NCBI GenBank assembly: GCA_032249735.1
Contig: JAVVHA010000012.1
Coordinates: forward strand, 6,346-70,345
Direction of reading: 5' to 3'
Length of the DNA stretch: 64,000 nt
From: Dehalococcoidia bacterium
GTDB taxonomy: Bacteria; Chloroflexota; Dehalococcoidia; SM23-28-2; HRBIN24
Part shown: positions 2,011 to 56,373 of the stretch, piece after piece
How the letters are laid out: every line of letters begins with the position of its first letter
How positions within the stretch are numbered: position 1 is the first letter of the stretch
Position numbers and translations under genes: made by a program
Notes under the pieces: model-generated
Told to the model about the DNA's origin: nothing
What the model saw: the letters and a program-made list of their open reading frames with translations, nothing else
The model's database searches: none

Positions 2011-2013
2011 GCC

Positions 2014-3024: not shown

Positions 3025-3101
3025 GACAGGGATGAAACCCAGCGGAAGATTGACACCTACACGGAAACGTGTAAGCTTGGGGACAAAAAGAAATAAGGCC
3101 C

Positions 3102-5122: not shown

Positions 5123-5132
5123 GGGGCAGGAC

Positions 5133-5885: not shown

Positions 5886-5928
5886 GGCTTCTCCCCTCTG
5901 CCTTCTTCCTCTATCATCAAGTGGGGGC

Positions 5929-20920: not shown

Positions 20921-20929
20921 GGCCTCCTC

Positions 20930-34271: not shown

Positions 34272-35735
34272 GTGAGCGAGCCCCTCTACGCCCTCACCAT
34301 CCATGAGGCTGCTGAGCTATTGCGCCGCCGAGAGATCACCTCCCTGGAGCTCACTGAATCTGTTTTGCACCGTATCCAGGAGACGGAGCCCCATCTCAAT
34401 GCTTTTATCACTATCACCGCCGACCTAGCCCTGGCCCAGGCACGCCAAGCTGATGAGCGGCTAGAGCGGGGCGAGGCCCATCCCCTGACAGGGGTGCCAG
34501 CGGCCATCAAGGACATCATCTGCACTAAGGGCGTCCGCACCACCTGCGGCTCCCATATGCTGGAGAACTACATCCCCCCATATGACGCCACAGCCATAGA
34601 GAGGCTGCGCCGGGTGGGTATGGTCATGGTGGGCAAGACCAACATGGACGAGTTCGCCATGGGCTCCTCGGGGGAGAACTCGGCCTTCGGGCCCACCCAT
34701 AACCCCTGGGACCTGGAGCGGGTCCCCGGCGGCTCTTCCTCCGGCTCGGCGGCGGCGGTGGCCGCCCAGCAGTGCATCTACTCCCTAGGCAGCGATACAG
34801 GCGGCAGCATCCGCCAACCGGCGGCCCTGTGCGGCGTGGTGGGGTTCAAGCCCACCTACGGACGTGTCTCCCGTTATGGGCTGGTGGCCTTCGCCTCCTC
34901 CCTAGACCAGATCGGCCCCATCACGAAAGATGTGCGGGACGCCGCCCTGGTCCTAGGGGTCATCGCTGGCCATGACCCCCTCGACTCCACCTCCGCCCCC
35001 GTGGCAGTCCCTGACTACACCGCGGCCCTGGTCCCTGACCTTAAGGGGGTCCGTGTGGGAGTGCCCAAGGAGTACCTGGGTGAGGGACTAGATAAAGGAT
35101 CGCGGGAGGCCGTCATGGCGGCCATAGGCGTCTTGCAGGAGCTGGGGGCGGAGGTAGACTGGGAGGTCTCCCTTCCTACCACCCCTTATGCCCTGGCCTG
35201 CTACTATATCATCGCCCCCAGCGAGGCCTCGGCCAACCTGGCCCGATACGACGGGGTCAAGTACGGTTTCTCTTACACCGAGGGCGCCTCCATGTGGGAG
35301 AATATGGAAAAGACACGTCAGTACGGGTTCGGCATGGAGGTGAAGCGGCGCATCATGCTGGGGGCCTATGCCCTCTCCGCCGGCTACTACGATGCCTACT
35401 ATCTGAAGGCCCTCAGGGTGCGGACCCTCATCTGCCGTGAATTTGAGGCCGCCTTCCAAAGCCATGACGTGCTGGTGACCCCCGTCTCCCCCACCCCAGC
35501 CTTCCGCCTGGGGGAGAAGGTTCACGACCCCCTGCAGATGTATCTGAGCGATATCTTCACCATCCCCATCAACATCGCCGGGCTGCCGGCCATCTCTGTG
35601 CCCTGTGGGTTCAGCCAGGGCCTGCCTGTGGGGCTGCAGATCATCGGCCGCCCCTTTGAGGAGGCCACCGTCCTGCGGGTAGCCTACGCCTACGAGCAGG
35701 CCACCCCCTGGCACAACAGGAGGCCTCCCCTATGA
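34272..35735 (+). CDS. gatA: Asp-tRNA(Asn)/Glu-tRNA(Gln) amidotransferase subunit A
   Basis: Amidase signature ([22 protein letters not shown]). Confidence 0.95.
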
Positions 35736-36220
35736 GCGCATCGGGCCTGGGCAAGGTGGTGGCCGTCTGCCTGAGCCCCCACCCGGGCATACCCAAATAC
35801 CCACAGGAGCGGGTGACGGTGGGGCCCTGGGGCATCGTGGGCGATTATCACGCCCGTCCCCACACCGTACACCCGCGCTGGGACGGAACGCGTCCCAACC
35901 GACGGCAGGTCAGCATCGTCGCTCGGGAAGTATACGCGGAGCTGGAGAGGGCCCTGGGCATAAAGGTGCCTCCTGGGGGTTTCGCCGAAAACGTATTGGT
36001 GCAAGGCCTGGGCGACCTCTCCCACCTCCAGCCCGGCCAGCGCTTGCTCTTTTCCTCCGGTGTCGTGCTGGAGGTCACAGCCCAGAACATCCCCTGCAAG
36101 AACCTCGCCGTCTACCATCCCCAGGTCCCCAAGCTAGTCTACGGCCGGCGGGGGGTGGTGGCGGTGGTCGTGACCACGGGCACCATCTCCCCTGGCGACC
36201 TGGTGAGGATAGGGCCATGA
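35732..36220 (+). CDS. MOSC domain-containing protein
   Basis: A YiiM-like beta-barrel with a conserved Cys (NIPCKNL). ATGA-coupled to gatA. Confidence 0.75.
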
Positions 36221-38447: not shown

Positions 38448-40148
38448 TCACATGCGGTCAGGGGCGGACATGCCCATAAGGCGGAGAGTGCGGGCCAGCA
38501 CCACCTTGGCCGCCTTCACCAGCTTGAGGCGCGCCAGGGACAAGGCTACATCCTCCGAGACCACGCGGCACCGCTCGTAGAAATCGTGGAAGGCCGTGGC
38601 CAGGTCCAGGGCATAGTAGGGCAGGACATGGGGCTCCAGCTTGCGAGCCACGTATTCCACCGTCTCCGGCAGGCGCACCAGCTGCCGGATGAGGGCCAGC
38701 TCCGCCTCCTCCCTCAACAGGCCCACATCGCCGTGGGAGCCGTCCAGGCCTCGCTCAGCGGCATGGGCCAGAATGCCAGCCATACGGGCATGGGCATATT
38801 GCACATAGTATACGGGGTTATCCATCGATTGCCTCTTGGCCAGCTCCAGATCGAATTCCACGTGGGACTGGGGGGCGCGGGAGAGGAAGAAGAACCGCGC
38901 AGCATCGGCCCCCACCTCCTCCACCACCTCCCGCAGGGTGATGACCTCCCCGGCACGCTTGGACACCCGCACCTCTTGTCCGCCGCGCTTCAGGGTCACC
39001 AGCTGATGGATGATAATGATAAGGCGGTCGGGGTCGATGCCCAGGGCGGCCACCGCCGCCTTCATGCGGGGCACGTGCCCCTGGTGGTCTGCCCCCCAGA
39101 CGTCCACCACCCGCTTAAACCCCCGCTCCAAGAACTTGTGGTAGTGATAGGCGATGTCGGAGGCGAAGTAGGTGGGCTTGCCGTTGGAGCGTACCAAAAC
39201 GTTGTCCTTGTCCTCCCCCAGGGCAGAGGAGACGAACCAGATGGCGCCCTCCTTCTCGGCCACAAATCCCTGCTGGCGTAGTATCTCCATGGCCTTCTGA
39301 AAGGTCTCCGGGTAGAGGCTGCGCTCGCTGAACCAGGAGTCGTACTCCACGCCCATGAGGGCCAGGTCGTCACGGATGCGAGCCAGCATCTTCCGGATGC
39401 CTATCTCGTGAATCTCTGGGGGGTAGGGCCCCTCGGCGCCCAGAAAGCGGTCGCCCCACTCCTGCCTTATCTCCTCAGCCAACTCCCAGACGTAGGAGGC
39501 GGTGTAGGCACCCGGAGGCACCTCCACCTCCTCCCCGAAGAGCTGACGGTAACGGGCGTAGAGGGTGGTGGCGAAGCTCTCCGTCTGGGTGCCGGCATCG
39601 TTGATATAGTACTCCTTCTCCACTTGGTAGCCGGCGGTCGCCAGCACGCGAGCCAGGGCATCACCGATGGCCAGGCCACGGCCTGCGCCCACCGTCAAGG
39701 GGCCCGTAGGGTTGGCGGAGACGAACTCCACCTGCACCTTCTCCCCACACCCCATGGCCACGGACCCGAATCCCTCCCCCTCGGCCAATATCTGATCCAC
39801 CTGGGAGGCCAGCCATTCAGGGGCCAGGGAGAAGTTGATGAACCCAGGGGGGGCCACCTCCACCATCCCTACCATGGTGCTGGGAGGCAAGTGTTCGGCG
39901 ATGACTTGGGCCACCTCCATGGGGGGCATGCGCACTGCCCGCGCCAGACGCAGGGCTATGTTGGAAGCGTAGTCGCCGTGCTCCTGGCGCTGGGGACGCT
40001 CCACTGTGGCCTGGGGGAGGGCCACTGGCGGTATGCGCCCCACCTCCTGGGCCCGCCGCACCGCCTCCTGCACCAAGGACTCGATCTCCCACCTGACCAC
40101 GAGGGACATCGCTCCATCAATTTTAAGGCGGCCAAGCCCATATGGCAT
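38448..40148 (-). CDS. argS: Arginine--tRNA ligase
   Basis: Class I aaRS HIGH-type region and a DALR anticodon-binding domain, at full length. Confidence 0.9.
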   Translation of the reverse strand: MPYGLGRLKIDGAMSLVVRWEIESLVQEAVRRAQEVGRIPPVALPQATVERPQRQEHGDYASNIALRLARAVRMPPMEVAQVIAEHLPPSTMVGMVEVAPPGFINFSLAPEWLASQVDQILAEGEGFGSVAMGCGEKVQVEFVSANPTGPLTVGAGRGLAIGDALARVLATAGYQVEKEYYINDAGTQTESFATTLYARYRQLFGEEVEVPPGAYTASYVWELAEEIRQEWGDRFLGAEGPYPPEIHEIGIRKMLARIRDDLALMGVEYDSWFSERSLYPETFQKAMEILRQQGFVAEKEGAIWFVSSALGEDKDNVLVRSNGKPTYFASDIAYHYHKFLERGFKRVVDVWGADHQGHVPRMKAAVAALGIDPDRLIIIIHQLVTLKRGGQEVRVSKRAGEVITLREVVEEVGADAARFFFLSRAPQSHVEFDLELAKRQSMDNPVYYVQYAHARMAGILAHAAERGLDGSHGDVGLLREEAELALIRQLVRLPETVEYVARKLEPHVLPYYALDLATAFHDFYERCRVVSEDVALSLARLKLVKAAKVVLARTLRLMGMSAPDRM

Positions 40149-40152: not shown

Positions 40153-42645
40153 TTAGCTTACCTCGGCCGTCACCCGCTCCTGCAGGGCCCGCAGCCGCTG
40201 GGCCAACACCTGATGCTGGGGGGCCTTGAGCTCCGGATCCTCCTCCAGGATGCGCCACGCCTCCTGCCTGGCCAGCTCGATGAGCTCGACATCGGTGATG
40301 TTGGCCACTTTCAGGTCTGGGAAGCCCGACTGGCGCACCCCGAAGTACTCGCCGGGCCCGCGCAGGCGCAGGTCCTCCTCCGCCAGCCGGAAGCCATCGT
40401 GCACCGTCTCCACGATGCGCAGCCGCTCCTGCGCCTCCTCGGAGGGGTTCTCGGAGAGAAGGAGGCAATAGGGCTGATAGTGGGACCGGCGAACGCGCCC
40501 CCGTAGCTGATGGAGCTGGGCTAGCCCGAACCGGTCGGCCCCCTCGATGAGGATGACGGTGGCGTTGGGCACGTCCACCCCTACCTCCACCACGGTGGTA
40601 GTCACCAGGATGTCCAGCTCACCGTCCCGGAAGCGGCGCATAGCCTCGTCCCGTTCCCTGGCCGACATACGCCCGTGCATGAGGCCAAGGCGTAGGTCGG
40701 GGAAGACGTCCCGGGACAGCCGCTCGTACTCTGCCTCTGCTGCCCGTGCCGCCACCACCTCCGACTCCTCGATGAGAGGACACACGATATAGGCTTGTCG
40801 CCCCTGGCCCACCTGGCGGCGGATGAAGTCGTAGGCCAGGTGCCGCTGATGGGGGCGCAGGACGTAGGTCTTGACGGGGGGCCGCCCGGGGGGCATCTCG
40901 TCCAGGACAGTAACGTCCAAATCGCCATATATGGTGAGGGCCAGGGTGCGGGGGATGGGGGTGGCGGTCATGACCAGGACGTGGGGCGCCCGCCCCTTCT
41001 CCCTCAAGGCGGCCCGTTGCACCACTCCGAACCGGTGCTGCTCATCGATGACAGCTATGCCCAGTCGAGGGAACCGCACCCCCTCCTGGATGAGGGCATG
41101 GGTGCCCACCACTATGTCCACCTCGCCATGGGCGATGGCCCTCTGCACCGCCGCCTTCTCCGCGGGGCGTAGGCTGCCCATGAGAAGGGCCATGCGCAGA
41201 GGGCGCCCCAGGAAGGGAGGTTCCATCACCACATAGCCCGGCCCCTCCAGGGAGAACCAGGGCCCCTCCCCTGCCTGGTCCCCTAGGAGGCGGCGCAGGG
41301 TGCGGAAATGCTGTTCAGCCAGGATCTCCGTGGGGGCCATGATGGCCCCCTGCCAGCCCGACCAGGCGGCAGCCAGGAGGGCGGTGGCCGCCACCACCGT
41401 CTTGCCGCTGCCCACATCCCCCTCCAAGAGGCGGCTCATGGGCACATCCCGCGAAAGGTCCTGCAGCACCTGGGCTATGGCCCGCCGCTGCGCGCCAGTG
41501 AGGGTGAAGGGGAGGGACGCTATAAACCCTTCCAATACCTCTTGAGGCAGGACCAGGGCAGGGGCCTTGGCTCCCTCCTGCCATGCCTTCTTACGCCTCA
41601 CCACCCCTAGCTCGATGACCAGCAGCTCCTCCAGGGCAAAGCGGCGGCGGGCCCTTTGGGCCATCTCCCGCGTATCGGGGAAGTGGATCTGGCGCAGGGC
41701 TTCGGCCACCGGCGGCAGGCCCAAGCGCTGACGCAGCTCGGGGGGCAAGGCCTCGGGCATCTGGTGGGCAGAGAGCTCCAGGGCCTGCCACACCAGCCGG
41801 CGCAACAGCCGCTGGGGCAGACCCTCGGTGCTGGGGTAAACAGGCACCAGGCGACGGGTGTTGAGAGACTCGGCGTCCAGGGGCTCCCACTCCGGGTTCT
41901 CCATCTGGCGCCGTCCACGGAAGACGGACACCCGGCCGGAGAAGGCCACCCGCATGCCCGTCCGCAGCTGGCGGGCCACGTGTGTCTGGCCCCACCAGAT
42001 GAGCCGCATGGTCCCTGTCTCGTCCCCCACGATGGCCTCGGTGGCCTTGCGTCGGCCTATGGCGGTCTCGCCGGCGCTCCAAACAGTAGCGATGACCGTC
42101 TGCTCCTCCCCCGTCACCAGCTGGCTTATGGGACGCACAGCCGCATAGTCATGGTAGCGGTGAGGGAAGTGGTAGAGGAGGTCGCCCACCGTTACGATGC
42201 CCAGCCGCCCCAGCTTGTGCGCATGGCCCCTGTTCACCCCGCGCAGCTGTGTCACAGGCGACGATGGGACGACGGCCCTGGCTTCCTCACGTTGGCGGCG
42301 GTGACGTTGCGGCTGAGGGGAACGGAGTGCTTGCAGGAGGGCCTCCACCACCCTGCGCCTCTGAATGGGGTGTAAGGCCGCGTAGCCGCCGGGGGGTAGG
42401 GAGCCCACCACCTGTAACAGCCGGTGGCCATCGGGCAGGGGGTTCTGCAGGAGAAAACGGCGCAGATAGGCGTCCAGGCCGCCCACCACGGCGGTATCCA
42501 AAAACCCCTTGGCCTTCTCCAGCTCCAGGACCCGCCGCAGCTGACCTATGGCCTCTTGCAAGGCCCTACTCTTCCCCCTCCAGACAGCCCACCCCGATGA
42601 CACCAGGGCCGGCATGAGTCCCCACCACAGGGCCGATGCGGACAA
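40153..42645 (-). CDS. recG: ATP-dependent DNA helicase RecG
   Basis: Wedge domain, helicase motifs (GDVGSGKT, DEQHRFG), and a TRG motif. The N-terminal roughly 80 nt overlap the degV 3' end, so the true start is probably downstream of 42645. Confidence 0.9.
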   Translation of the reverse strand: MSASALWWGLMPALVSSGWAVWRGKSRALQEAIGQLRRVLELEKAKGFLDTAVVGGLDAYLRRFLLQNPLPDGHRLLQVVGSLPPGGYAALHPIQRRRVVEALLQALRSPQPQRHRRQREEARAVVPSSPVTQLRGVNRGHAHKLGRLGIVTVGDLLYHFPHRYHDYAAVRPISQLVTGEEQTVIATVWSAGETAIGRRKATEAIVGDETGTMRLIWWGQTHVARQLRTGMRVAFSGRVSVFRGRRQMENPEWEPLDAESLNTRRLVPVYPSTEGLPQRLLRRLVWQALELSAHQMPEALPPELRQRLGLPPVAEALRQIHFPDTREMAQRARRRFALEELLVIELGVVRRKKAWQEGAKAPALVLPQEVLEGFIASLPFTLTGAQRRAIAQVLQDLSRDVPMSRLLEGDVGSGKTVVAATALLAAAWSGWQGAIMAPTEILAEQHFRTLRRLLGDQAGEGPWFSLEGPGYVVMEPPFLGRPLRMALLMGSLRPAEKAAVQRAIAHGEVDIVVGTHALIQEGVRFPRLGIAVIDEQHRFGVVQRAALREKGRAPHVLVMTATPIPRTLALTIYGDLDVTVLDEMPPGRPPVKTYVLRPHQRHLAYDFIRRQVGQGRQAYIVCPLIEESEVVAARAAEAEYERLSRDVFPDLRLGLMHGRMSARERDEAMRRFRDGELDILVTTTVVEVGVDVPNATVILIEGADRFGLAQLHQLRGRVRRSHYQPYCLLLSENPSEEAQERLRIVETVHDGFRLAEEDLRLRGPGEYFGVRQSGFPDLKVANITDVELIELARQEAWRILEEDPELKAPQHQVLAQRLRALQERVTAEVS

Positions 42646-43411
42646 GGTATGTGCGGGCGTGGGGCACGGCAGCCCGCATCCGCTCTAGCAAGGCCTCCGC
42701 CTCCTCCCGCTCTGTGGAGTAGCCCACCCCCATCTCCTGGATACGGGGCGAGGCCAAGATGAGTTGCAGCATGCGCTCCAAGGCCTGGGAGCGCGTCCGC
42801 ACCCTGGCCTCGGGGTGTAGCTCCCCATCCCGCACGCTCAGGATGGGCTTCACCTGCAACAGGGCCCCTAGAAGGGCCCTGGCCCTGCCGATGCGCCCGC
42901 CACGCCTGAGGTACTCCAAGGTGTCCAGCATGACCAAGATGCGTACCCGCTCCACGCACCGGCGGGCGATGGCCACCACCTGCTCCAGCCCTGCCCCCGC
43001 CTGCGCTGCCCGCGCCGCTGCCAACACGATGAAACCCATGCCCATGGAGACGTTGAGGGAGTCCACCACCTCGATGCGTGCCCCCTTCGCCTGCAGGGCA
43101 GCCGCCGCCTGGCAGGCGTTATTGTAGGTGGCCGATAGCTTGGAAGAGATGTGGATGGATACCACCTCATCCGTCTCCCTCAGGACCTCCTCATAGGCGC
43201 GGAGGAAATCCCCCACCGAGGGCGCAGAGGTGGTGGGCAGCTCCCTGCCCTCCTTCAGCAGCCGGTAGAAGGTGTCGTGGTCCATGTCCACCCCCTCGCG
43301 ATAGGCACGGTCGCCGAAGATGACGCTCAGAGGCACCACGGTGATCCCCAGCTCCTGTGCCAGCTCGCGGGGAATGTCGGCTGTGCTGTCCGTGACCACC
43401 TTGACCGCCAA
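42566..43411 (-). CDS. DegV family fatty-acid-binding protein
   Basis: KVVTDSTADIP, followed by the EDD-fold motifs. Confidence 0.85.
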   Translation of the reverse strand: MAVKVVTDSTADIPRELAQELGITVVPLSVIFGDRAYREGVDMDHDTFYRLLKEGRELPTTSAPSVGDFLRAYEEVLRETDEVVSIHISSKLSATYNNACQAAAALQAKGARIEVVDSLNVSMGMGFIVLAAARAAQAGAGLEQVVAIARRCVERVRILVMLDTLEYLRRGGRIGRARALLGALLQVKPILSVRDGELHPEARVRTRSQALERMLQLILASPRIQEMGVGYSTEREEAEALLERMRAAVPHARTYLVRIGPVVGTHAGPGVIGVGCLEGEE

Positions 43412-43497: not shown

Positions 43498-44448
43498 TTA
43501 CCACCATACCTTCCCCTCCACCTCCTCCGGCTGCAGGGCCTCCTGCCCTTTGGTCCAGAGGCCGGTGGAGAGGTACTTCCAGCCGCCGTCAGCGAACAAG
43601 CAGACGATATTGCCCCGTTGCAGCCTCTCCGCCACCCGCAGGGCGGTGCGCAGGACGGCACCGGAGGAGATGCCGGCAAATATCCCCTCCCGGTCCATCA
43701 GCTCCTTGGTCATGGCAAAGGAAGTGCGGGAGTCCACCACGATGCGTCCGTCCAGCACCGACTCGTCCAACACTGGCGGGATAAACCCTTCCTCCAGGCT
43801 GCGCAGCCCCTGCACGAGGTCGCCAGGATGGGGCACGGTGGCGATGACCTTCACCTTAGGGTTGTGCTCCTTGAGCCGCCGCCCCACACCCGTGAGGGTG
43901 CCGCCGGTCCCCAGCCCCGCCACAAACACGTCCACCTCCGGCAGGTCGCGGATGATCTCCACGGCGGTGGTCTCGTAATGGGCGCGGGGGTTGTTGGGGT
44001 TGCCGTATTGGTAGGGCATGTAGTAGCGCTGGGGGTCCTCCTCCACCATGCGCTGGGCAAGGGCGATGGCGTCGTTGGTGGAGCGGGCCCCCCGGGCATA
44101 CACCACCTCGGCGCCGAAGGAGCGGATGAGCTGTTCCCTCTCAGGGGTCACGTTATCGGGCAGGACGCACACCACCCGATAGCCCTTGACGCGGCCCACC
44201 ATGGCCAGGCTTATGCCCGTATTGCCACTGGTGGGCTCCAGAATGATCTTCTCCGGCGTCAGCGCGCCCGACTCCTCGGCAGCCCGGATCATGTAGAGAG
44301 CGATGCGGTCCTTAAGGCTGCCGCTGGGGTTCTGCCCCTCCAACTTGGCGAAGATGCGCACCCCAGGCTTGGGCTGGAACCGCCGCAGCTCCACCAGGGG
44401 AGTGTTACCGATGCACTCCAAGATGTTGGCATAGACCCTCCCCCCCAT
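43498..44448 (-). CDS. cysM: Cysteine synthase B-type PLP enzyme (CysM-like sulfhydrylase)
   Basis: IGNTPLVEL, SGSLKDR (PLP Lys), and TSGNTGISLA. The ATG at 44448 is preferred. The longer ORF-track start at 44496 would overlap the CysO-like stop. Confidence 0.85.
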   Translation of the reverse strand: MGGRVYANILECIGNTPLVELRRFQPKPGVRIFAKLEGQNPSGSLKDRIALYMIRAAEESGALTPEKIILEPTSGNTGISLAMVGRVKGYRVVCVLPDNVTPEREQLIRSFGAEVVYARGARSTNDAIALAQRMVEEDPQRYYMPYQYGNPNNPRAHYETTAVEIIRDLPEVDVFVAGLGTGGTLTGVGRRLKEHNPKVKVIATVPHPGDLVQGLRSLEEGFIPPVLDESVLDGRIVVDSRTSFAMTKELMDREGIFAGISSGAVLRTALRVAERLQRGNIVCLFADGGWKYLSTGLWTKGQEALQPEEVEGKVWW

Positions 44449-44482
44449 GGCCCGCCTCTTCCCGCTTACGGGCTGCGGCCTC

Positions 44483-44767
44483 TTAACCCCCAACATCTCC
44501 TCCTGCCAGGGCAGGGAGGATGGAGATCACGTCCCCATCCTGCACCGGCGTGTCCAGCTGCTGGAGAAAACGCACGTCTTCATCATTGAGATAGATGTTC
44601 ACGAACCGGTGCAGGCGGCCATTGTCCAAGACGCTGGCCTTGATGCCGGGGAACATCTCGTCCAGGCGGTCCAAGACCTCGCCGATGGTGGCTCCCTCCA
44701 CCTGCACGGAGCGCCTTCCCCCGGCCAGCCTTTGCAGGTTCGCCGTGAGCCTCACCTCTATCGCCAT
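44483..44767 (-). CDS. CysO/MoaD/ThiS-type sulfur-carrier protein with a C-terminal GG followed by a 4-residue extension (…ILPALAGG-DVGG)
   Basis: 94 aa. A beta-grasp pattern like M. tuberculosis CysO (RLAGG..., FVNIYLNDEDVRFLQ, ILPALAGG). The ATG at 44767 has a GGGG RBS. Confidence 0.8.
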   Translation of the reverse strand: MAIEVRLTANLQRLAGGRRSVQVEGATIGEVLDRLDEMFPGIKASVLDNGRLHRFVNIYLNDEDVRFLQQLDTPVQDGDVISILPALAGGDVGG

Positions 44768-44814
44768 TGCCAGCCCCTTTCCATTATATTGCGCAGTCCT
44801 TTCTGCGCATATCT

Positions 44815-45903
44815 TCACTCGTGCCTCCCTGGGAAGGGGGCACCGCAAAAGCCTTCGTAATCGATGAGCTGAGTGATGGTGGGCTCATCGCCACACAGGG
44901 GGCATGCGGGATCCCGCCGCAGCTTGACTACCCGGAACTCGCCCGCCAGGGCATCGTAGAGGAGGAGGCGCCCCACCATGGGCTCGCCGATGCCCAGGAT
45001 GAGCTTTATGGTCTCCACCGCCTGTAGGGAGCCGATGACACCTGTGAGGGCGCCCAGGACGCCCGCCTCAGCACAGCTGGGCACCGCCCCTGGCGGGGGA
45101 GGTGAGGGGAAGAGGCAACGGTAGCAGCCCCGGCCGGGCATGAACACCGTCATCTGGGCGTCGAACATGAGGATGGAGGCGTCCACCAGGGGCTTGCCGG
45201 CGAAGTAACAGGCATCGTTGACCAGGTAGCGGGTGGTGAAGTTGTCGGCCCCGTTCACCACCACGTCATACTGGGGGATGATGTCCATGGCGTTGTCGGA
45301 GGTGAGGGGGCCATCGTGGATGACCACGTTGACGTCCGGATTGTAGGAGAGGATGGTCTCCCTGGCCGACTCCGTCTTGGGGCGCCCTACGTCGTCGTTC
45401 TGATGGAGGATCTGGCGCTGGAGGTTGGAGAGGTCCACCACATCGAAGTCCACGATGCCGATGGTGCCCACGCCGGCCAGGGCCAAGTAGAGGGCGGCGG
45501 GGGAGCCCAGGCCTCCCGCTCCTACCACCAGCACCTTAGCCGCCAGGAGCTTGCGCTGGCCCACCGGGCCCACCTGGGGCATGATGATGTGGCGCGAGTA
45601 GCGCAGCACCTGCTCTGGGGTCAGCACCTGGCCACCGGCGATGGCCGGGATGATGGCCACCTCGTCGCCGTCCTGCACCGGTGTCTCCGGCCCCTGCAGG
45701 GTGTGGATCTCTTGATTGTTGAGGTAGACGTTGATGTGGGCGGGGATATGCCGCTGCTGGTCGAAGATCATGTTGGCCAGGGCGGGGAAGTGACGTGCCA
45801 GGTCCTCTAGGATCTCCCGCACCGTCCTGCCTTGGGCCTGCACATAGACCTGGTTGCCCGTAAGCCTTCGGAAGGGCGTCGGTATGTAGACGGTCACGCT
45901 CAC
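44815..45903 (-). CDS. E1-like adenylyltransferase (MoeB/ThiF/MoeZ family) with an N-terminal fused CysO-like beta-grasp domain; no rhodanese domain
   Basis: The N-terminal 91 aa (VTVYIPTPFRRLTGNQ...VAIIPAIAGG) are a CysO paralogue, followed directly by the E1 Rossmann fold (VLVVGAGGLGSPAALYLALAGVG, crossover-loop Cys in SCAEAGVLG) and a C-terminal CPLCG Zn motif. A GTG start with an AGGAGGAGG RBS. Confidence 0.85.
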   Translation of the reverse strand: MSVTVYIPTPFRRLTGNQVYVQAQGRTVREILEDLARHFPALANMIFDQQRHIPAHINVYLNNQEIHTLQGPETPVQDGDEVAIIPAIAGGQVLTPEQVLRYSRHIIMPQVGPVGQRKLLAAKVLVVGAGGLGSPAALYLALAGVGTIGIVDFDVVDLSNLQRQILHQNDDVGRPKTESARETILSYNPDVNVVIHDGPLTSDNAMDIIPQYDVVVNGADNFTTRYLVNDACYFAGKPLVDASILMFDAQMTVFMPGRGCYRCLFPSPPPPGAVPSCAEAGVLGALTGVIGSLQAVETIKLILGIGEPMVGRLLLYDALAGEFRVVKLRRDPACPLCGDEPTITQLIDYEGFCGAPFPGRHE

Positions 45904-45918
45904 GCTTTTCCTCCTCCT

Positions 45919-46839
45919 TTACTCCAAGAAGCTGTAACGCTCGCCGGTGTCCGGCAGGATGGTCACCACCCGCTTGCCCCGGCCCATCCGCTTGGCCACT
46001 TTGATGGCTGCCACCACATTGGCCCCCGATGATATGCCCACCAGGAGCCCCTCCTCACGGGCCAGACGGCGGGCCATGGCCATGGCCTCTTCGTCCCCCA
46101 CGCCGATGACCTCGTCGATGATGCGCCGGTTGAGGACGCCAGGGACGAAGCTGGCGCCTATGCCCTGGATGGCATGGGGGCCTGGTCTGCCCCCTTGCAA
46201 GACGGGCGAGCGGGAGGGCTCCACTGCCACCACCAAGATGTTGGGGTTGTGCTGCTTTAGGACCTCGCCAACGCCGGTGATGGTGCCGCCCGTGCCCACC
46301 CCAGCCACGAAGGCGTCCAGCCGCCCCTCCGTGGCCTCCAAGATCTCCTGGGCGGTGGTGCGACGGTGGATCTCGGGGTTGGCGGGGTTCTCGAACTGCT
46401 GGGGCATGAAGTAGTCGGGGTTGTTGCGCACCAGCTCCTCAGCGGCGTAGACCGCCCCCGTCATCCCCTCTAGGGCCGGGGTGAGGACCACCTCCGCCCC
46501 GAATCGGGCCAGGAGGTCGCGACGGGCCAGGCTCATGTCTTCGGGCATGGTGACGATGAGGCGGTACCCCTTCACAGCCGCCACCATGGCCAGGCCGATG
46601 CCCGTGTTACCGCTGGTGGGTTCCACGATGGTAGCCCCTGGCTTGAGGATGCCCCGTCGCTCGGCGTCCTCGATCATGGAGAGGGCGATGCGATCCTTGA
46701 CGGAGCCAGCGGGGTTGAGGGACTCCAGCTTAGCCACGATCTCTGCCGCCCCATTGGGCACCACGCGGTTGAGGCGCACCATGGGCGTGTCGCCTATAAG
46801 GTCGAGGACGCTGTCCACGATCCTAGCGCGCCTGGCCAT
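45919..46839 (-). CDS. cysK: Cysteine synthase A (O-acetylserine sulfhydrylase)
   Basis: [26 protein letters not shown], and [10 protein letters not shown]. Confidence 0.9.
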
Positions 46840-46847
46840 GCTCGCCC

Positions 46848-47291
46848 CTAGATAACGTACCTATCGGCCCGCACCGCCCGCTGCCGGTCCTTGGCGGCCA
46901 GCTCGGCTATGGTCACCCGGTCCAGCACTTGCATAATGGCTCGCTGGACCTCCTCCCACATCTCCCGCTGGGCACAGCCGCCGGCGCGGCTGCACTCGGA
47001 GGCCTCCTCCAGACACTCCACCGGTATGAGCTCTCCCTCGAGGGCCCTTATGACGTCGCTCACCCTTATCTCGTTGGGGTGGCGGGCCAGGGCATGCCCC
47101 CCCTGCGGGCCCCGCACGCTGCGCACCAGCCCAGCCCGCCGCAGCATGGCCAAAAGCTGCTCCAGATAAGACTCAGGGATGTTCTGGCGAGCGGCGATCT
47201 CAGCGCTCTGGGTGAGCCGTCCTTCCCCATACCGGTGGGCCAGCTCGATGAGGGCGCGGATGCCGTAGTCCCCCTTGCTCGATATGCGCAT
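46848..47291 (-). CDS. Rrf2-family transcriptional regulator (CymR/IscR-like)
   Basis: [18 protein letters not shown], wHTH, and C-terminal Cys residues (CSRAGGC). The ATG is at 47291. Confidence 0.85.
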
Positions 47292-47363
47292 GCATCCCAC
47301 CAAGAAAGTGGAGTGGTTTCATCAACAATACTAGCATGGGCCATGTGTGGGGGCAAGGGGCCG

Positions 47364-47627
47364 CTAAGGCGCCGGGCGGGTGGGTGGCAGACCTAGGCGA
47401 GCGGCCAGCTCCCCGTTGGTGGGCTCCACTAGATAGTCTCCTTCGGGGAACACCACCACCGGTATGATGAAGCGGCCCCCATTGACCTGAAGGACGTACT
47501 GCCTGGCCTCCTGGTCGGCCTCCACGTCCAGCCAGCGGAAGGGTACGCCCCAGTCGGTGAGGAACTGCTTGGCGCGACGGCAGTCGGGGCACCAGTTGGC
47601 CCCATAGACGTATACGATGCCAGTCAC
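47364..47627 (-). CDS. Glutaredoxin-like small redox protein (CPDC motif)
   Basis: [20 protein letters not shown], a thioredoxin-fold N-terminus. The GTG start overlaps the upstream stop (GTGA). Confidence 0.7.
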
Positions 47628-47905
47628 GCCCCGCCTCCCGCCACAGCGGGCACGATGCTTACCTCATCACCTGGCTTGAGGACGGTATCCAGACCTTGGA
47701 GGAAGCGCACGTCCTCGCCGTTGACGTATACGTTGACGAAGCGGCGCAACTGGCCCGCCTCGTCCACAAGCCGCTCCTTGAGGCCCGGGAACCGGGCCTC
47801 AAGGGCCTCGATGCAGTCCTTGAGGCGGGAGCCCTCGGCGGTCACCACCTCCTGGCCACCGGTGAGGCGGCGCAAGGGGGCTGGGATGCGTACCTTCACG
47901 CTCAT
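47624..47905 (-). CDS. CysO/MoaD/ThiS-type sulfur-carrier protein, C-terminus …[10 protein letters not shown]
   Basis: [31 protein letters not shown], and IVPAVAGG closely mirror M. tuberculosis CysO. Two extra residues follow the Gly-Gly. Confidence 0.85.
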
Positions 47906-47917: not shown

Positions 47918-48160
47918 TCAACCCTCCATGATGTCACCGGGCACGGGGTCCACCCTCACCCCCTGCTCCTCCACCCACCTTATCCCACGCTCGATCTCCT
48001 CCATATCCCCCTCCAGCTCGAGGACGACCCATCCCTGGGTCTCGGTGACGTCGGCGCGGCGGATGTTGGTTACCACGTTGAAGTTCTTACCCAGGCGCCA
48101 AATGATGGGCTCCTGCACTAGCTGAGGGGGGAAGGTGAATTTGACCCGCTGTTTGGCCAC
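47918..48160 (-). CDS. Stand-alone NIL-domain protein (MetN C-terminal-like substrate-binding domain)
   Basis: An 80-aa beta-alpha-beta-beta-alpha-beta pattern (VKFTFPPQLVQEPIIWRLGKNFNVVTNIRRADVTETQGWVVLELEGDMEEIERGIRWVEEQGVRVD). The GTG at 48160 lies 11 nt after the thrC-like stop. The ORF-track TTG at 48223 would overlap upstream. Confidence 0.6.
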   Translation of the reverse strand: MAKQRVKFTFPPQLVQEPIIWRLGKNFNVVTNIRRADVTETQGWVVLELEGDMEEIERGIRWVEEQGVRVDPVPGDIMEG

Positions 48161-48170
48161 GTTACCACCC

Positions 48171-49421
48171 CTACCCTTTGCTGGCCATGAGGGCTTCCTG
48201 ACGACGGGCCATAGCCTCCTCAAAGGAGGCGATGGTGGGCATTACCACCACGGGCTCAGGCAGGACGCCCTCTACGGCCTCCCGCGTCTTAAGGCCGGCC
48301 CCTGTGATGAATGCTACCACCGTCTCGTCCGGGGCGAAAGAGCCTGCCTGGGCCAGACGCTTGAGGGCAGCCACCACCACCCCCCCAGCCGTCTCAGCGA
48401 ATATCCCTTCTGTCTCGGCCAGGAGCCGCATCCCCTCCACGATCTCATCGTCGGACACGGCCACCCCATAGCCACCGCTCTCGTTGAGGACGCGCAGGGC
48501 GTAATAGCCGTCGGCGGGGTTGCCAATGGCCAACGATTTGGCGATGGTGTTGGGGCGCTGGGGTCGGATATCGTAGCTCTTGCGCTCCCAGGCCTCCACC
48601 ACCGGTGAGCAGCCCAAGGCCTGAGCGGCCGTCATGCGCGGTGGCCGCCACTCCACCAGGCCCAGCCAGGCCAGCTCCTTCATGCCCTTGTAGATCTTGG
48701 TGAACAGGGAGCCGCTGGCCACCGGCACCACGCAGTGATGGGGGATGCGCCAGCCCAGCTGCTCGCACACCTCGTAGCCCAGGGTCTTGGAGCCTTCAGC
48801 GTAATAGGGGCGGACGTTGATGTTAACGAAGGCCCATGGGTACCTCTCGGCCAGCTCGCTGCACAGGCGGTTGACATCATCATAGGACCCCTTCACGGCC
48901 ACCAGGGTGGGGCCATAGATGGCCGAGCCCACCACCTTGCCCACCTCCAGGTCGGCGGGGATGAAGACTAGAGCCCGCAGCCCAGCGCGGGCGGCATGAG
49001 CGGCTACGGAGTTAGCCAGGTTGCCAGTGGAGGCACAGGCCAAGGTATCGAAGCCGAACTCCCGGGCCTTGGTGGCCGCCACCGATACCACCCGGTCTTT
49101 GAAGGACCAGGTGGGGTTTACGCAATCGTTCTTAATATAGAGGTGGCGCAGCCCCAGGGCCTTGCCCAGACGGGGAGCAGGCAACAGAGGGGTGAAGCCA
49201 GCGCCGATGTCCACCGGCTCCCCTTCCACCGGCAATAGTTCGCGATAGCGCCAGATGGTGTAAGGCCCCCCCTCGATGCGGCGACGAGATATGTGCCTGC
49301 GTAGGGCCTCGTAATCGTAAGTCACTTCCAGGGGTCCGAAGCAGAACTCGCACACATATATGGGCTCCAGCGGGTACAGGCGCCCACACTCGCGACACCT
49401 CAGACTTTTGGCGAAGGACAT
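48171..49421 (-). CDS. Threonine-synthase-family PLP enzyme with an N-terminal Zn-ribbon (candidate homocysteine-forming MetM-like enzyme)
   Basis: CRECG...CEFC ribbon, SFKDR (PLP Lys), and ASTGNLANSVAAHAARAG. The ATG at 49421 has a GGAGGG RBS and lies 20 nt downstream of the riboswitch terminator. Confidence 0.85.
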   Translation of the reverse strand: MSFAKSLRCRECGRLYPLEPIYVCEFCFGPLEVTYDYEALRRHISRRRIEGGPYTIWRYRELLPVEGEPVDIGAGFTPLLPAPRLGKALGLRHLYIKNDCVNPTWSFKDRVVSVAATKAREFGFDTLACASTGNLANSVAAHAARAGLRALVFIPADLEVGKVVGSAIYGPTLVAVKGSYDDVNRLCSELAERYPWAFVNINVRPYYAEGSKTLGYEVCEQLGWRIPHHCVVPVASGSLFTKIYKGMKELAWLGLVEWRPPRMTAAQALGCSPVVEAWERKSYDIRPQRPNTIAKSLAIGNPADGYYALRVLNESGGYGVAVSDDEIVEGMRLLAETEGIFAETAGGVVVAALKRLAQAGSFAPDETVVAFITGAGLKTREAVEGVLPEPVVVMPTIASFEEAMARRQEALMASKG

Positions 49422-49476: not shown

Positions 49477-49571
49477 CTCGCCTTCGGTCCCCCGCCACAT
49501 CCCGCGCGCCGGCGCCCATTGCAATAAAGGAGGCCCCTTCCACTAGAGGGAAGAGGCCATATCCAGGCCAG

Positions 49572-49716
49572 CTCCCCCTTATCGTCCCCCACCTCAAGGC
49601 GGGGACGGCGTTGGCACCGCTGCACGGGCTCGGCTCAGGACCTGAAGCCCTGGCCTGACCCCGGCCGGTTGCCGGGCTTCACAGGGCCGTTCCCTCCACC
49701 TCTCTGGATAAGAGGG
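49572..49716 (-). promoter_or_regulatory. SAM-I (S-box) riboswitch aptamer
   Basis: Minus-strand CUCUUAUCCAGAGAGGUGGAGGGAACGGCCCUGUGAAGCCCGGCAACC...GGUGCCAACGCCGUCC...GAUAAGGGGGAG matches the S-box consensus (UCUUAUCnAGAG.GGnGGAGGGAnnGGCCC.AUGAAnCCCnGCAACC...GGUGCnAA...GAUAAG), with P1 closed by CUCUUAUC/GAUAAGGG. Confidence 0.85.
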
Positions 49717-49743
49717 GCCGTATTCGGTTGTCAGGGCTTTATC

Positions 49744-51060
49744 CTAGCATGCCCCCCACTGTGTGTCAACGGGCCGCGGGGCCCCCTCGCGCCCCCTTGG
49801 CAGAACTACCACGAAGGTGGCACCCCGCCCCAGCTGGCTCTCTGCCCAGATGCGGCCGCCGTGGGCCTCCACTATGGCCTTAGCGATGGCCAGCCCCAGC
49901 CCCGCCCCTCCATCCTCATCGCGGCGGCGGGCGCGGTCGGCCCGATAGAAGCGGTCGAAGATGCGGGGCAGGTCCTGGGGGTCGATGCCCACCCCTGTAT
50001 CGGCCACCTCCAGACGGGCCCTATCGCCATCGGCGGCGGCCCTCACCTCCACCCTGCCTCCCGCGGGGGTGAATTTGATGGCGTTGTCCAACAGGATGAA
50101 CAGAAGCTCCCGCAGGCGGGTGGCATCGCCCCACAGGGGGACGGCGCCCGGGGCCACCACCTCTCCTTGCAGGCCCTTCTCCTGAAGGCGGGGCGAGAGC
50201 TGACGCACGGCGTCCCGAGCCAACTGGGCCAAGTCCACCTCCTCCCTGTGCAGGGGAAGACGGCCAGCGTCGGCCCGAGCCAGGGTCAGCAGCTGGGACA
50301 CGAGGCGGGCCAGTCGCTCGCTCTCGCCGATGATATCCTCCACCTCCTGCCGGTGAGCCGAGATAGGCTCCTCGGGGTGACGTTGGAGGATCTCGGCGCT
50401 GGCCCTGATGAGGGAGAGGGGGGTCCGGAGTTCATGGGAGGCATCGGCCATGAAGGTCCGCTGGCGCTCCATAGCCTCTTTGATGGGACGGAGGGCCCGC
50501 CCGGCCAAGAAATAGCCCCCGCCTACCGACAGGAGGATGGCACCTACCCCTCCTGCCAGCAGAATCACCAGGAGGTTGTGCAGGGCAGATAGCTCAGGCT
50601 CGAGGCTCCGTCCCACCAGTAGCACCAGCCCAGGGCCCATCCCCACGGGCCGCAGATAGATACGCACCTCCTCCCCATCGTGCGACTGGACGGTCAGGAG
50701 CTTGGGCCCCCTTGCTAACACCTCCTGCGTATCCTGGGACGGGGGGAGAATGGTGGGGTCCAAGTTGCGGCTGGCGGCCAGGAGCTGCCCATGGGGCCCT
50801 AACAGGGCATACATATATGCGTAGGACCCCTCCTCTGGCCCCACCTGAACATCCCCTATGGCCTGCTGCCTCTCCAGGAGGCGTAGACGGGCATTGAGGA
50901 GGGGCAGCTCCCGTTCCGCCCGCGTGCGCAGCTCGTCGTCCACGTTCCCCAGCACCATGTGACGGACCGTGAGGTACACGGCTAGGCCCAATAGGGTCAG
51001 GGCCACCGCCAGGACTGCCGCAAACCAAAGGGCGAGGCGCCAGCGAGCGGACGCGAACAC
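49744..51060 (-). CDS. Two-component sensor histidine kinase (TM, HAMP, HisKA, HATPase)
   Basis: Two TM helices, ASHELRTPLSLI (H-box), and N, G1 and G2 boxes. Confidence 0.9.
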   Translation of the reverse strand: MFASARWRLALWFAAVLAVALTLLGLAVYLTVRHMVLGNVDDELRTRAERELPLLNARLRLLERQQAIGDVQVGPEEGSYAYMYALLGPHGQLLAASRNLDPTILPPSQDTQEVLARGPKLLTVQSHDGEEVRIYLRPVGMGPGLVLLVGRSLEPELSALHNLLVILLAGGVGAILLSVGGGYFLAGRALRPIKEAMERQRTFMADASHELRTPLSLIRASAEILQRHPEEPISAHRQEVEDIIGESERLARLVSQLLTLARADAGRLPLHREEVDLAQLARDAVRQLSPRLQEKGLQGEVVAPGAVPLWGDATRLRELLFILLDNAIKFTPAGGRVEVRAAADGDRARLEVADTGVGIDPQDLPRIFDRFYRADRARRRDEDGGAGLGLAIAKAIVEAHGGRIWAESQLGRGATFVVVLPRGREGAPRPVDTQWGAC

Positions 51061-51063: not shown

Positions 51064-51735
51064 CTACTCCGATATCATGTAGCCATGGCCCCGCACAGTA
51101 TGGATGAGGGGCCTCTGGTGACCCTTGTCCACCTTGCGCCGTAGGTAGGCGATGTATACATCCACCAAGTTGGAGTCGGGGGCGAAATCGTATCCCCACA
51201 CGTGATCCAGGATCTGGGTGCGGGTGAGGACGCGGCCTGCGTTACGCATAAGCAGCTCCAAGAGGGCAAACTCCTTAGGGGAGAGCTCGATCTCGCGGCC
51301 CCCACGCCAGGCCCGGCGCCGCTGCAGGTCCAGCACCAAGTCCCCCACCTGGAGCCGATGGGGCTCCCGCGGCTGGACGCGACGGCGGGAGAGAGCCCGC
51401 AGACGGGCCAGCAGCTCCTGGAATGCAAAAGGCTTGGCAAGGTAGTCGTCGGCGCCGGCGTCCAGGCCCCGCACCTTGTCCTCCACGCTGTCCAGGGCGG
51501 TGAGCATGAGGACAGGGGTGTCCACCTTGGCCCGACGCAAGGCCTGGCACACCTCCACCCCGTTCATCTCCGGAAGCAATATGTCCAGCACGATGACATC
51601 GAAATCCCCTTCCAAGGCCAGGCGGAGGCCTTCCAGGCCATCGTAAGCTACCTCCACCCGGTGCCCCTCCTCCTCCAGGACACGGCGCACCAGCTGGACC
51701 AGGCGCCGCTCGTCCTCTACCAAGAGGACCTTCAC
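51064..51735 (-). CDS. OmpR-family response regulator
   Basis: REC domain (VLLVEDE...DVIVLDILLP) and a winged-helix output domain. Confidence 0.9.
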   Translation of the reverse strand: MKVLLVEDERRLVQLVRRVLEEEGHRVEVAYDGLEGLRLALEGDFDVIVLDILLPEMNGVEVCQALRRAKVDTPVLMLTALDSVEDKVRGLDAGADDYLAKPFAFQELLARLRALSRRRVQPREPHRLQVGDLVLDLQRRRAWRGGREIELSPKEFALLELLMRNAGRVLTRTQILDHVWGYDFAPDSNLVDVYIAYLRRKVDKGHQRPLIHTVRGHGYMISE

Positions 51736-55940: not shown

Positions 55941-56363
55941 TCAAAGGCTTCCTATGATACGCGTGGGCCCCTGTAGCCAGCCGAGAAGCATCTCCTCCGT
56001 GGCCAACTCAAGCCCCCTCATCTCCGGCATCCCCAGCAGGCGGCTCCAGATGGGACAGGCGTAGAGGGCCACCCCCTCTTGCTGAGCCTGTTGCAGGAGG
56101 GACCGCACGTCCACCTGGCGCCCTTCCCCCCTGCCCATGATGGGCAGGCCCAAATCGCGGGCAGCATCGGCCAGGCGCCACCTGGTCTCCTGGCCCTGTA
56201 GCTCCACGGGCCAGCGGAAGAAGCCATCGGCCACTGCCTTTAACGCCTCCTGGGTGAAGAGAACCCCCACCTTCTGGCCGGAGCGCCTAGCGGCCATGGC
56301 CGCTAGGAGAGTCCCCATTAGTGAGCTGGCCACGGCATCGCGACATATGAACAACAGGTCCAT
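55941..56363 (-). CDS. Hypothetical protein, possibly DsrE/DsrF-like
   Basis: 140 aa with an MDLLFICRD N-terminus. A weak resemblance only. Confidence 0.4.
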   Translation of the reverse strand: MDLLFICRDAVASSLMGTLLAAMAARRSGQKVGVLFTQEALKAVADGFFRWPVELQGQETRWRLADAARDLGLPIMGRGEGRQVDVRSLLQQAQQEGVALYACPIWSRLLGMPEMRGLELATEEMLLGWLQGPTRIIGSL

Positions 56364-56373
56364 AGCTCCCTCC

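Follow-up and report, generated by a model that had tools for sequence, protein, structure and literature searches.

This work concerns a five-gene module for cysteine synthesis in a 64,000-nucleotide (nt) stretch of contig JAVVHA010000012.1 from a Dehalococcoidia bacterium, a stretch that we refer to throughout as the window and in whose numbering all positions are given. The module occupies positions 43498-47291, from the stop codon of the cysM-type gene (43498) to the ATG of rrf2 (47291), in a window whose G+C content is 64-68%. All five genes lie on the minus strand and are transcribed in the order rrf2, cysK, a gene for a ubiquitin-like domain (Ubl) fused to an E1-type adenylating enzyme (E1), cysO and the cysM-type gene. 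An earlier note on this DNA had proposed the same five genes in the same order; open reading frames (ORFs), Pfam and NCBIfam models bear out each of them, and the gene content and family assignments, given here with the two domains of the fusion, are solid.

47291-46848, minus strand: rrf2, a 147-residue Rrf2-family regulator (Pfam PF02082, E 6e-44)
46839-45919, minus strand: cysK, O-acetylserine sulfhydrylase A, 306 residues (TIGR01139, 457 bits against a cutoff of 351)
45903-44815, minus strand: Ubl-E1 fusion, 362 residues in a single uninterrupted frame (ThiS at residues 5-91, E 6e-15; ThiF, PF00899, at residues 102-335, E 8e-84)
45903-45631, minus strand: ThiS/MoaD-like beta-grasp domain of the fusion, ending in AIAGG at residues 87-91
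45600-44899, minus strand: ThiF/MoeB/MoeZ-type adenylating domain of the fusion, after a linker of 2-3 residues and with no rhodanese domain
44767-44483, minus strand: cysO, a free ThiS/MoaD-family carrier of 94 residues (Pfam ThiS, E 4e-18)
44448-43498 (alternative ATG at 44496), minus strand: cysM-type cysteine synthase, 316 residues (PALP, E 1e-72; TIGR01136, the cysKM subfamily, 348 bits against a cutoff of 344)

Gaps of 8-45 nt separate the genes, and there are no terminator-like sites between them. The start codons of cysO and cysM were reassigned to 44767 and 44448, respectively, and the N-termini then agree with those of orthologs and of Mycobacterium tuberculosis CysM. We consider it probable that the whole represents a self-regulated cysteine operon of the Chloroflexota, in which there are two routes to cysteine, the E1 provides a link to methionine synthesis, and control is exerted by Rrf2 together with CysK.

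Scanning a single genome for each species gave 80 related loci, nearly all of them in metagenome-assembled genomes of Chloroflexota (Dehalococcoidia class), the nearest being JZ-1.bins.128 (L061, 90%), 'Bacterium HR24' (L035, 85%) and a third locus, L001 (84%). The order Rrf2-CysK-Ubl.E1-CysO-CysM is present in 55 of the 80, a recurrence far above chance expectation. Genes for sulfite reductase, 3'-phosphoadenosine 5'-phosphosulfate/adenosine 5'-phosphosulfate (PAPS/APS) reductase and ATP sulfurylase adjoin the module in 25 loci, and in about a dozen of these they are placed between rrf2 and a second sulfur operon that lies upstream of it, headed by an S-box riboswitch for S-adenosylmethionine (SAM) and described below. 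The fuller module is a 12-14-gene operon array for sulfur assimilation, of which the window lineage and its three nearest relatives have a stripped-down version. In two loci (L024, positions 1513-6531, and L018) the same sulfate-reduction genes stand between the S-box operon and rrf2 in the company of a gene for a 373-residue protein that has no Pfam match and a hydrophobic C-terminus; similar gene sets occur in about 23 other loci. A search of the literature for earlier descriptions of this Chloroflexota operon found nothing specific.

Other loci depart from this order. Four from a low-G+C Dehalococcoidia lineage (L071, L075, L077 and L079) have a reduced Rrf2-E1-CysM arrangement in which the E1 is unfused and cysK, the fused Ubl and an adjoining cysO are all missing. 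Three loci from Bacillota metagenome-assembled genomes (L062, L064 and L065) encode a Ubl-E1 fusion that is 59-61% identical and adjoins a CysK-like gene, and the fusion is therefore not confined to the Chloroflexota. In the long-read genome of L066 (7062-9088) the CysK and E1 frames are split into pieces, through indel errors or pseudogene formation, both of which are possible.

The earlier note had placed a classical CysK beside a CysM-type enzyme in a single operon, and the two enzymes are indeed distinct. The cysK product passes its TIGR01139 cutoff and carries the TSGNTG and QQFEN motifs along with a KIQGIG-type loop (AIQGIGASF); judged on the TIGR01139 score, the second cysteine synthase of the operon is a canonical CysK. 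Its substrate O-acetylserine is supplied by cysE, which is required if the O-acetylserine route is to be truly parallel.

The CysM-type protein, for which the note had drawn an analogy with M. tuberculosis CysM, has the three structures of that very enzyme as its top matches in the PDB (3DKI, 3DWG and 3DWI; 293 bits, aligned end to end), as against 247 bits for the best CysK match, and it falls far below the cutoffs of the Escherichia coli-type CysM models (290 against 394 bits and 283 against 413). In an alignment with M. tuberculosis CysM and two CysK sequences, that of the operon and one from Geobacillus, the segment SGSLKDR falls opposite TGSIKDR of the M. tuberculosis enzyme and includes the Schiff-base lysine expected of a fold-type II pyridoxal phosphate (PLP) enzyme. 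The substrate loop is seven residues shorter than in CysK, a deletion common to M. tuberculosis CysM, and R216 is the equivalent of Arg220, lying in GLRSLEEGF where M. tuberculosis CysM has ALRNMDEGF and the CysK enzymes have GGxPGPHxIQGIG. There is also a C-terminal tail of about 18 residues (ending EVEGKVWW, against ALEGQLW in M. tuberculosis CysM) that is missing from both CysK sequences. Neither R216 nor the terminal WW varies among the 44 CysM orthologs, and we regard both the diagnostic residues and their conservation as firmly established.

Arg220 reportedly recognises the phosphate of phosphoserine. Weighing against assignment of the enzyme to the M. tuberculosis type is its identity to M. 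tuberculosis CysM (48%), which is only marginally greater than to the CysK enzymes (44-45%). Because the identities are nearly equal, the assignment is made on diagnostic features and genomic context and not on global similarity. By these the gene encodes an M. tuberculosis-type CysM, for which we infer O-phosphoserine and CysO thiocarboxylate (CysO-COSH) as substrates; as the PDB matches, R216, the loop deletion and the tail all indicate, it does not group with ordinary CysK/CBS enzymes and does not lack the phosphoserine arginine.

Three ThiS/MoaD-type domains (PF02597) occur within 4.5 kb: the free CysO, a MetO-like carrier encoded in the S-box operon, and the fused Ubl. As in M. tuberculosis, cysO is directly upstream of cysM, and its product finds A. 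orientalis CysO (4N6E_B, 4e-23) and M. tuberculosis CysO (3DWG_C, 7.5e-20) in the PDB. Compared with M. tuberculosis CysO, the free CysO is 47% identical and the MetO-like carrier 54%; the fused Ubl, at 36%, is the most divergent of the three and lacks the motif RFVN[IV]Y.N.EDVRF that the other two have in common with actinobacterial CysO. The earlier note had labelled the fusion as one of CysO with an E1; the fusion itself is real, but on PDB matches and identity the free gene is the better candidate for CysO. In the window the Gly-Gly of the free carriers is followed by short extensions (ALAGG then DVGG in CysO; AVAGG then GA in the MetO-like carrier), and among orthologs an invariant LPALAGG precedes 0-33 variable residues in CysO, while VPAVAGG precedes 0-7 residues in the MetO-like carrier. 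An invariant Gly-Gly ahead of as many as 33 unconserved residues implies that the carriers are matured by a peptidase specific for Gly-Gly.

Each of the three Ubls scores above the NCBIfam cutoff for SAMP1, and NCBIfam models show that the E1 resembles MoeB and UbaA, which might suggest that the Ubl, E1 and carriers serve some other sulfur transfer or conjugation (molybdopterin, thiamine, tRNA thiolation, or a process like SAMP or TtuB) and that CysM is an ordinary O-acetylserine sulfhydrylase B using sulfide or thiosulfate. Consistent with this, E1 orthologs of about 75% identity are found outside a cysteine context in other Dehalococcoidia, and CysM is barely less identical to CysK than to its M. 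tuberculosis counterpart. We nevertheless think it very improbable, given how far the protein falls short of the E. coli-type CysM models and that the diagnostic features of M. tuberculosis CysM are invariant. The position of cysO immediately ahead of cysM likewise follows M. tuberculosis, a gene for a Mec-like JAMM peptidase comes after cysM in 24 relatives, and no molybdopterin, thiamine or tRNA-thiolation genes stand beside the module in the loci examined.

The most distinctive component of the operon is the Ubl-E1 fusion. We searched for it in a collection of 5.8 billion proteins, and the 120 best-scoring clusters listed are all at least 76% identical and contain both Pfam domains, save for one unaligned 462-residue ENA entry; the fusion is in frame in 65 of 65 aligned full-length relatives. 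An assembly or frameshift artefact is ruled out by these two observations. Residues G90 and G91, the CxxC zinc pairs C260/C263 and C334/C337, and C277 in the active-site region are invariant in the relatives of the fusion. The protein ends about 20 residues past its adenylation domain; its match to the MoeZ model covers just positions 5-275 of the 392 and scores 370 bits (cutoff 647), and domain models find in the window protein no rhodanese domain, the C-terminal persulfide carrier by which MoeZ is defined. The sulfur for the thiocarboxylate is therefore probably external to the E1.

What becomes of the fused Ubl is less certain. In all 65 relatives the Ubl ends in an invariant IPA[ILM][AS]GG, followed by an unconserved linker of 1-45 residues and then by an invariant LTxEQVxRYSRHIIMPQVG. 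An invariant Gly-Gly succeeded by a freely varying linker is the pattern of the free carriers and favours cleavage, although our own estimate for release of the Ubl by a cut after Gly-Gly, as predicted from this pattern, is finely balanced. A more elaborate proposal, to which we give slightly less than an even chance, is that Ubl-E1 is a bacterial polyprotein, in which a JAMM peptidase would cut after Gly-Gly to free sulfur carrier and E1 in a 1:1 ratio and the E1 would be switched on by proteolytic maturation. The processing of ubiquitin precursors in eukaryotes and some archaea provides a parallel. For cleavage as such there is a precedent in the mycobacterial MoaD-MoaE fusion MoaX of M. tuberculosis, which is reported (PMC4326299) to need cleavage for activity.

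Several observations weigh against cleavage. Across 65 species the Ubl and E1 are never seen as split, adjacent genes, and the covalent link could itself be functional: the Ubl is either fused or, in unfused E1s of about 75% identity, absent, as in the Rrf2-E1-CysM locus L071 and at L072, where a stand-alone E1 lies in an unrelated context. No separate Ubl gene was found beside the unfused E1 in either of these two loci. The fused Ubl might then be an uncleaved and permanent domain of the E1, either gating the adenylation site as a pseudo-substrate or bringing in CysM, MetM or a sulfurtransferase as an adaptor, a role comparable to the recruitment of E2s by the ubiquitin-fold domains of eukaryotic E1s, and only the two free carriers would carry sulfur. 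The divergence of this Ubl, with its loss of the RFVN[IV]Y.N.EDVRF motif, and the linker of only 2-3 residues in the window are in keeping with such a role. For ThiF proteins that have N-terminal Ub-like domains and co-occur with free ThiS, Iyer, Burroughs and Aravind (2006) came to this view as well, holding that the two act differently. Set against a permanent domain are the Gly-Gly, conserved in 65 of 65 and followed at once by residues that are hypervariable in both sequence and length like the extensions of the free carriers, the presence of a JAMM peptidase gene in the same operon of many relatives, and the reported requirement for cleavage in MoaX (PMC4326299). We regard a permanent domain as possible but on the doubtful side. 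An AlphaFold2 model of the fusion (mean predicted local distance difference test score, pLDDT, 71.9) has both domains folded and places residues 87-109, comprising the Gly-Gly, the linker and the first E1 helix, below 50; it is uninformative on docking or cleavage at the junction, which also counts against a confident reading of release. We found no experimental study of Ubl-E1 (ThiF) fusions in the literature searched.

A peptidase suited to maturing these carriers is encoded close by in many relatives. Of the 43 loci in which the contig extends 1.5 kb past cysM on its downstream side, 24 have a JAMM gene with the motif HSHTxSxAYPSPTD inside that distance, and a JAMM gene is also near the fusion in two of the three Bacillota loci (L062 and L065). 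Examples of the Mec-like JAMM genes with this motif are the following.

L002, 5387-5815: Mec-like JAMM gene
L024, 10705-11136: Mec-like JAMM gene
L018, 10432-10842: Mec-like JAMM gene

The window itself is different in this respect. A six-frame regular-expression search of its 64 kb gave two matches, neither of which fits the JAMM motif; Pfam found no JAMM/Mec domain in ten small and medium window ORFs; and tblastn with the JAMM proteins of four relatives, sulfite reductase (Sir), PAPS/APS reductase (CysH), ATP sulfurylase (Sat) and the 373-residue protein found no match in the window or in L001, L035 and L061. The absence of JAMM/Mec, rhodanese, cysteine desulfurase and sulfate-reduction genes from the window and from the flanks of its three closest relatives weighs against a self-contained pathway, as it means that essential steps depend on genes out of view. 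The carriers in these four loci have retained their extensions beyond Gly-Gly, yet none of the four has a JAMM gene. The window lineage must encode a peptidase and a sulfide supply elsewhere in its genome.

The earlier note had further proposed that the module forms a supercluster with the S-box operon upstream, channelling protein-bound sulfur into both cysteine and, putatively, homocysteine, and the contents of that operon fit the proposal.

49741-49769, minus strand: S-box operon promoter (TTGACA, 17-nt spacer, TAGGAT; 10 of 12 consensus positions, with TG before the -10)
49576-49714, minus strand: SAM-I (S-box) riboswitch aptamer (RF00162, 74.1 bits against a gathering threshold of 44.4, E 3e-16, model positions 1-108)
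49532-49558, minus strand: riboswitch terminator hairpin directly after the aptamer (10-pair stem and T-rich run)
48171-49421, minus strand: ThrC-like PLP enzyme with an N-terminal zinc ribbon, a MetM-like candidate homocysteine synthase (PALP, E 1e-74; NF006050, 317 bits)
47918-48223, minus strand: free-standing NIL-domain protein (PF09383, E 6.5e-16; start codon uncertain, the ORF overlapping the ThrC-like gene by 52 nt)
47624-47905, minus strand: MetO-like ThiS/MoaD-family carrier of 93 residues (Pfam ThiS, E 2e-22)
47364-47627, minus strand: glutaredoxin/mycoredoxin-like protein with a CPDC motif (PF00462, E 1e-13; TIGR02200, 72 bits, below cutoff)

The riboswitch stands upstream of the orthologous gene in all five relatives with this region in view (L001, L005, L014, L035 and L061). 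NCBIfam models name the ThrC-like protein threonine synthase, and it shows the features described for MetM: it belongs to the ThrC family of PLP enzymes, its gene is controlled by a SAM riboswitch, and a ThiS-family carrier is encoded next to it. The NIL gene keeps its place between the ThrC-like and carrier genes in every relative with the operon in view; such domains have otherwise been described in MetN and in the homocysteine system of methanogens. According to Hasebe et al. 2024, as cited in GapMind 2026 and PMC12172450, metM of Streptomyces albulus is likewise preceded by a SAM riboswitch and has a carrier gene beside it, and MetM, MetO, Mec and MoeZ there convert O-phosphohomoserine to homocysteine by a thiocarboxylate route. 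By analogy in gene content and riboswitch context, the S-box operon fits this MetM/MetO route to homocysteine. It has no E1 of its own and so presumably relies on that of the cysteine operon.

The glutaredoxin-like gene overlaps the stop codon of the MetO-like carrier by 4 nt. None of the 80 related loci gives a tblastn match to it at E <= 1, and on this account it is a lineage-specific insertion between the two sulfur operons. Its product may reduce disulfides or persulfides of the E1 and carriers. There is no terminator between this gene and rrf2, which makes read-through from the S-box operon into rrf2 possible. At the other end of the S-box operon, the promoter is contained in the final 26 nt of a histidine-kinase ORF (49744-51060, minus strand), which follows an OmpR-type response regulator gene (51064-51735, minus strand).

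The cysteine operon has signals of its own. The note had put an Rrf2 gene at its head, and besides the Pfam match, a conserved operator-like box overlaps the rrf2 promoter.

47328-47356, minus strand: rrf2 operon promoter (-35 TTGCCC at 47356-47351, 17-nt spacer, extended -10 TGcTAGTAT at 47336-47328)
47305-47329, minus strand: candidate Rrf2 operator, the 25-bp box ATTGTTGATGAAACCACTCCACTTT, which abuts the -10 and has weak dyad symmetry about its centre

The promoter matches the consensus at 8 of 12 positions, below the threshold of a generic promoter scan, and its 'tg.Ta..AT' part is conserved in an anchored alignment of relatives. The box (consensus ATTGTTGAyGnAnTnnSTnnACwTT) is the most conserved non-coding sequence in the aligned upstream regions of relatives; it has a single match in the window, against 0.01 expected by chance, and the relatives that match the pattern have one copy each, always upstream of rrf2. 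As a candidate known RNA element it was discarded, Rfam at E <= 1 giving only the SAM riboswitch. The earlier note had suggested a search for Rrf2 operators ahead of both operons; a candidate stands ahead of rrf2, and upstream of the S-box operon there is no second copy even when 3 mismatches are allowed. The absence of the box there indicates that the two operons have separate primary controls, SAM in one case and Rrf2 in the other.

The Rrf2 protein passes the Rrf2 superfamily model and ends in R-Y-V-I (DRYVI). Tails of this R-Y-x-I type occur in all 61 loci in which cysK is the next gene and are absent from three of the four Rrf2-E1-CysM loci without cysK (Fisher p = 9e-5, not corrected for shared ancestry). 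A 2024 preprint reports that the C-terminal peptide of Staphylococcus aureus CymR (ending GYMFYI) enters the active site of CysK with a KD of 25 nM, competing with O-acetylserine, and that CysE tails bind CysK likewise; the operon CysK retains the TSGNTG and QQFE contact motifs that the preprint names. The most economical reading of these sequence features is a CymR-like repressor complex of CysK and Rrf2 that would be released by O-acetylserine, maybe with an added Fe-S or redox input.

Other features point away from CymR. The dyad symmetry of the operator is, as noted, only weak, and the box is unlike the published CymR box. Rrf2 scores 130 bits on the CymR model NF047409, below the cutoff of 195, and its best solved relative is the Fe-S-type 4CIC (6e-36), presumably the IscR of Thermincola potens, ahead of Bacillus subtilis CymR (2Y75, 9e-29). 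It also contains Cys93, Cys100 and Cys106 in the C-x6-C-x5-C spacing of Rrf2 cluster ligands, kept in 49, 61 and 51 of 65 orthologs, respectively. Rrf2 could accordingly be an IscR/NsrR-type Fe-S sensor that acts alone and ties cysteine supply to Fe-S or redox status, its tail having nothing to do with CysK. We consider this unlikely. In 13 of the 65 orthologs a His replaces Cys93 and a deletion removes Cys106, while the R-Y-x-I tail and the adjacent cysK are retained; on sequence, putative Fe-S ligands seem to have been lost here, in the manner of CymR, within a single orthologous group. The carboxy-terminal tail is more strictly conserved than the cysteines, tracks the adjacent cysK, and matches the type of peptide shown to bind CysK. 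The description of Rrf2 as CymR-like in the earlier note thus stands for the tail, which resembles that of S. aureus CymR; it does not stand for the equivalog score, which was not reached, or for the three Fe-S-type cysteines, which CymR lacks.

Drawing these strands together, we propose the following pathway. On the first route, CysK would make cysteine from O-acetylserine and sulfide. On the second, of the M. tuberculosis type, the E1 would adenylate the C-terminal Gly-Gly of CysO once the extension beyond it had been trimmed, and the adenylate would be converted to a thiocarboxylate with sulfur probably drawn from free sulfide or a separate sulfurtransferase. CysM would condense O-phosphoserine with CysO-COSH, and a JAMM peptidase of the Mec type, encoded elsewhere in this genome, would then free cysteine. 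In all likelihood this E1 acts on the MetO-like carrier of the S-box operon as well, and in that operon the ThrC-like homologue of MetM would make homocysteine from O-phosphohomoserine. The fused Ubl would most likely be released at Gly-Gly as a further carrier, the alternative being that it docks uncleaved on the E1 dimer. Rrf2 would occupy the 25-bp box at its own promoter, over the start of transcription, and its Y-x-I tail probably docks in the CysK active site as in CymR-CysK, with O-acetylserine relieving repression; a further input, Fe-S or redox, may come through the three cysteines.

Most of these elements have precedents. In M. tuberculosis, mec+, cysO and cysM reportedly form a pathway with MoeZR, known in part from structures 3DKI and 3DWG. 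The Chloroflexota module resembles it in the features of CysM, a CysO carrier upstream of cysM, a MoeZ-like adenylating domain and, in many relatives, a Mec-like JAMM gene. It departs from it in that the E1 is encoded in the operon, lacks a rhodanese domain and has an N-terminal Ubl, that cysK and Rrf2 are included, that the window has no JAMM gene and its carrier a 4-residue extension beyond Gly-Gly, and that the host belongs to the Chloroflexota. With CymR-CysK of B. subtilis and S. aureus it shares an Rrf2 regulator of cysteine genes, an aromatic-x-Ile tail and a CysK with the peptide-contact motifs. Unlike in that system, the regulator gene is directly upstream of cysK in its presumed target operon, and the regulator has three Fe-S-type cysteines and falls below the equivalog cutoff. 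In the HcyS/HcyD/HcyF/MetY system of Wolinella succinogenes and QbsE/QbsD of Pseudomonas, a JAMM peptidase removes the residues beyond Gly-Gly from the carrier, sulfite reductase and sulfate-assimilation genes are associated, the acceptor is MetY, and no fused Ubl-E1 is known. Carriers with extensions beyond Gly-Gly and sulfate-assimilation neighbours (in relatives) are alike in those systems and here, whereas the acceptors, here CysM and a ThrC-like enzyme, and the fused Ubl-E1 differ.

The S-box operon, compared with the S. albulus MetM/MetO system by description, is alike in its SAM riboswitch, its ThrC-like PLP enzyme and the adjacent ThiS-family carrier, which requires an E1 and processing of its C-terminus; it differs in having a NIL gene between enzyme and carrier, a glutaredoxin-like gene after the carrier, and an E1 drawn from the neighbouring cysteine operon. 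For the fusion, the closest precedents are the Ubl-ThiF proteins catalogued by Iyer et al. (2006), along with operons of ThiS, E1, JAB and cysteine synthase genes, one of them in Chloroflexus. In those proteins too the Ubl precedes the E1 and a free ThiS-family gene co-occurs, and the Pelobacter propionicus case adjoins a cysteine synthase. The present fusion differs from them in belonging to a Chloroflexota CysO/CysM operon and in the identity of at least 76% among the 120 best-scoring clusters listed. The building blocks, namely CysO/CysM/Mec/MoeZ, CymR-CysK control, MetM/MetO and the Ubl-ThiF architecture, were thus already known, and what is new is their combination and distribution. A 2022 review holds M. 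tuberculosis-type CysM to be restricted to actinobacteria, and the present system, lying outside them, is contrary to that view. Also new are the presence of CysK in the same operon, an E1 with an N-terminal Ubl in place of rhodanese, and a regulator that mixes IscR-like and CymR-like features.

Other genes of the window may be recorded briefly. Directly on the 3' side of cysM, translations read by eye suggest DegV-like (42566-43411), RecG-like (40153-42645) and ArgS-like (38448-40148) ORFs. Further away are a B12-binding-domain protein adjoining a 588-residue ORF (20507-22696), a MOSC-domain protein (35732-36220), and a cluster that includes a ChsH2-like OB-fold/zinc-ribbon protein and an acyl-CoA dehydrogenase (55941-59127).

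The database names MoeB, SAMP1 and threonine synthase mask this pathway in public annotation. The strongly conserved Ubl-E1 fusion, with its Gly-Gly intact, is a testable lead on processing and function, and an Rrf2 regulator with Fe-S-type cysteines and a tail like those that dock in CysK, in which the cysteines have been lost from some orthologs, looks like an evolutionary intermediate between IscR-like and CymR-like forms. The CysO-thiocarboxylate route has been treated so far as a peculiarity of actinobacteria and as a target for drugs against tuberculosis. Here it is encoded by a compact operon, conserved in dozens of Chloroflexota species and tied to CysK, to sulfate reduction (in relatives) and to a MetM/MetO route, which suggests that protein-bound sulfide is a general strategy for the synthesis of sulfur amino acids in the Chloroflexota.

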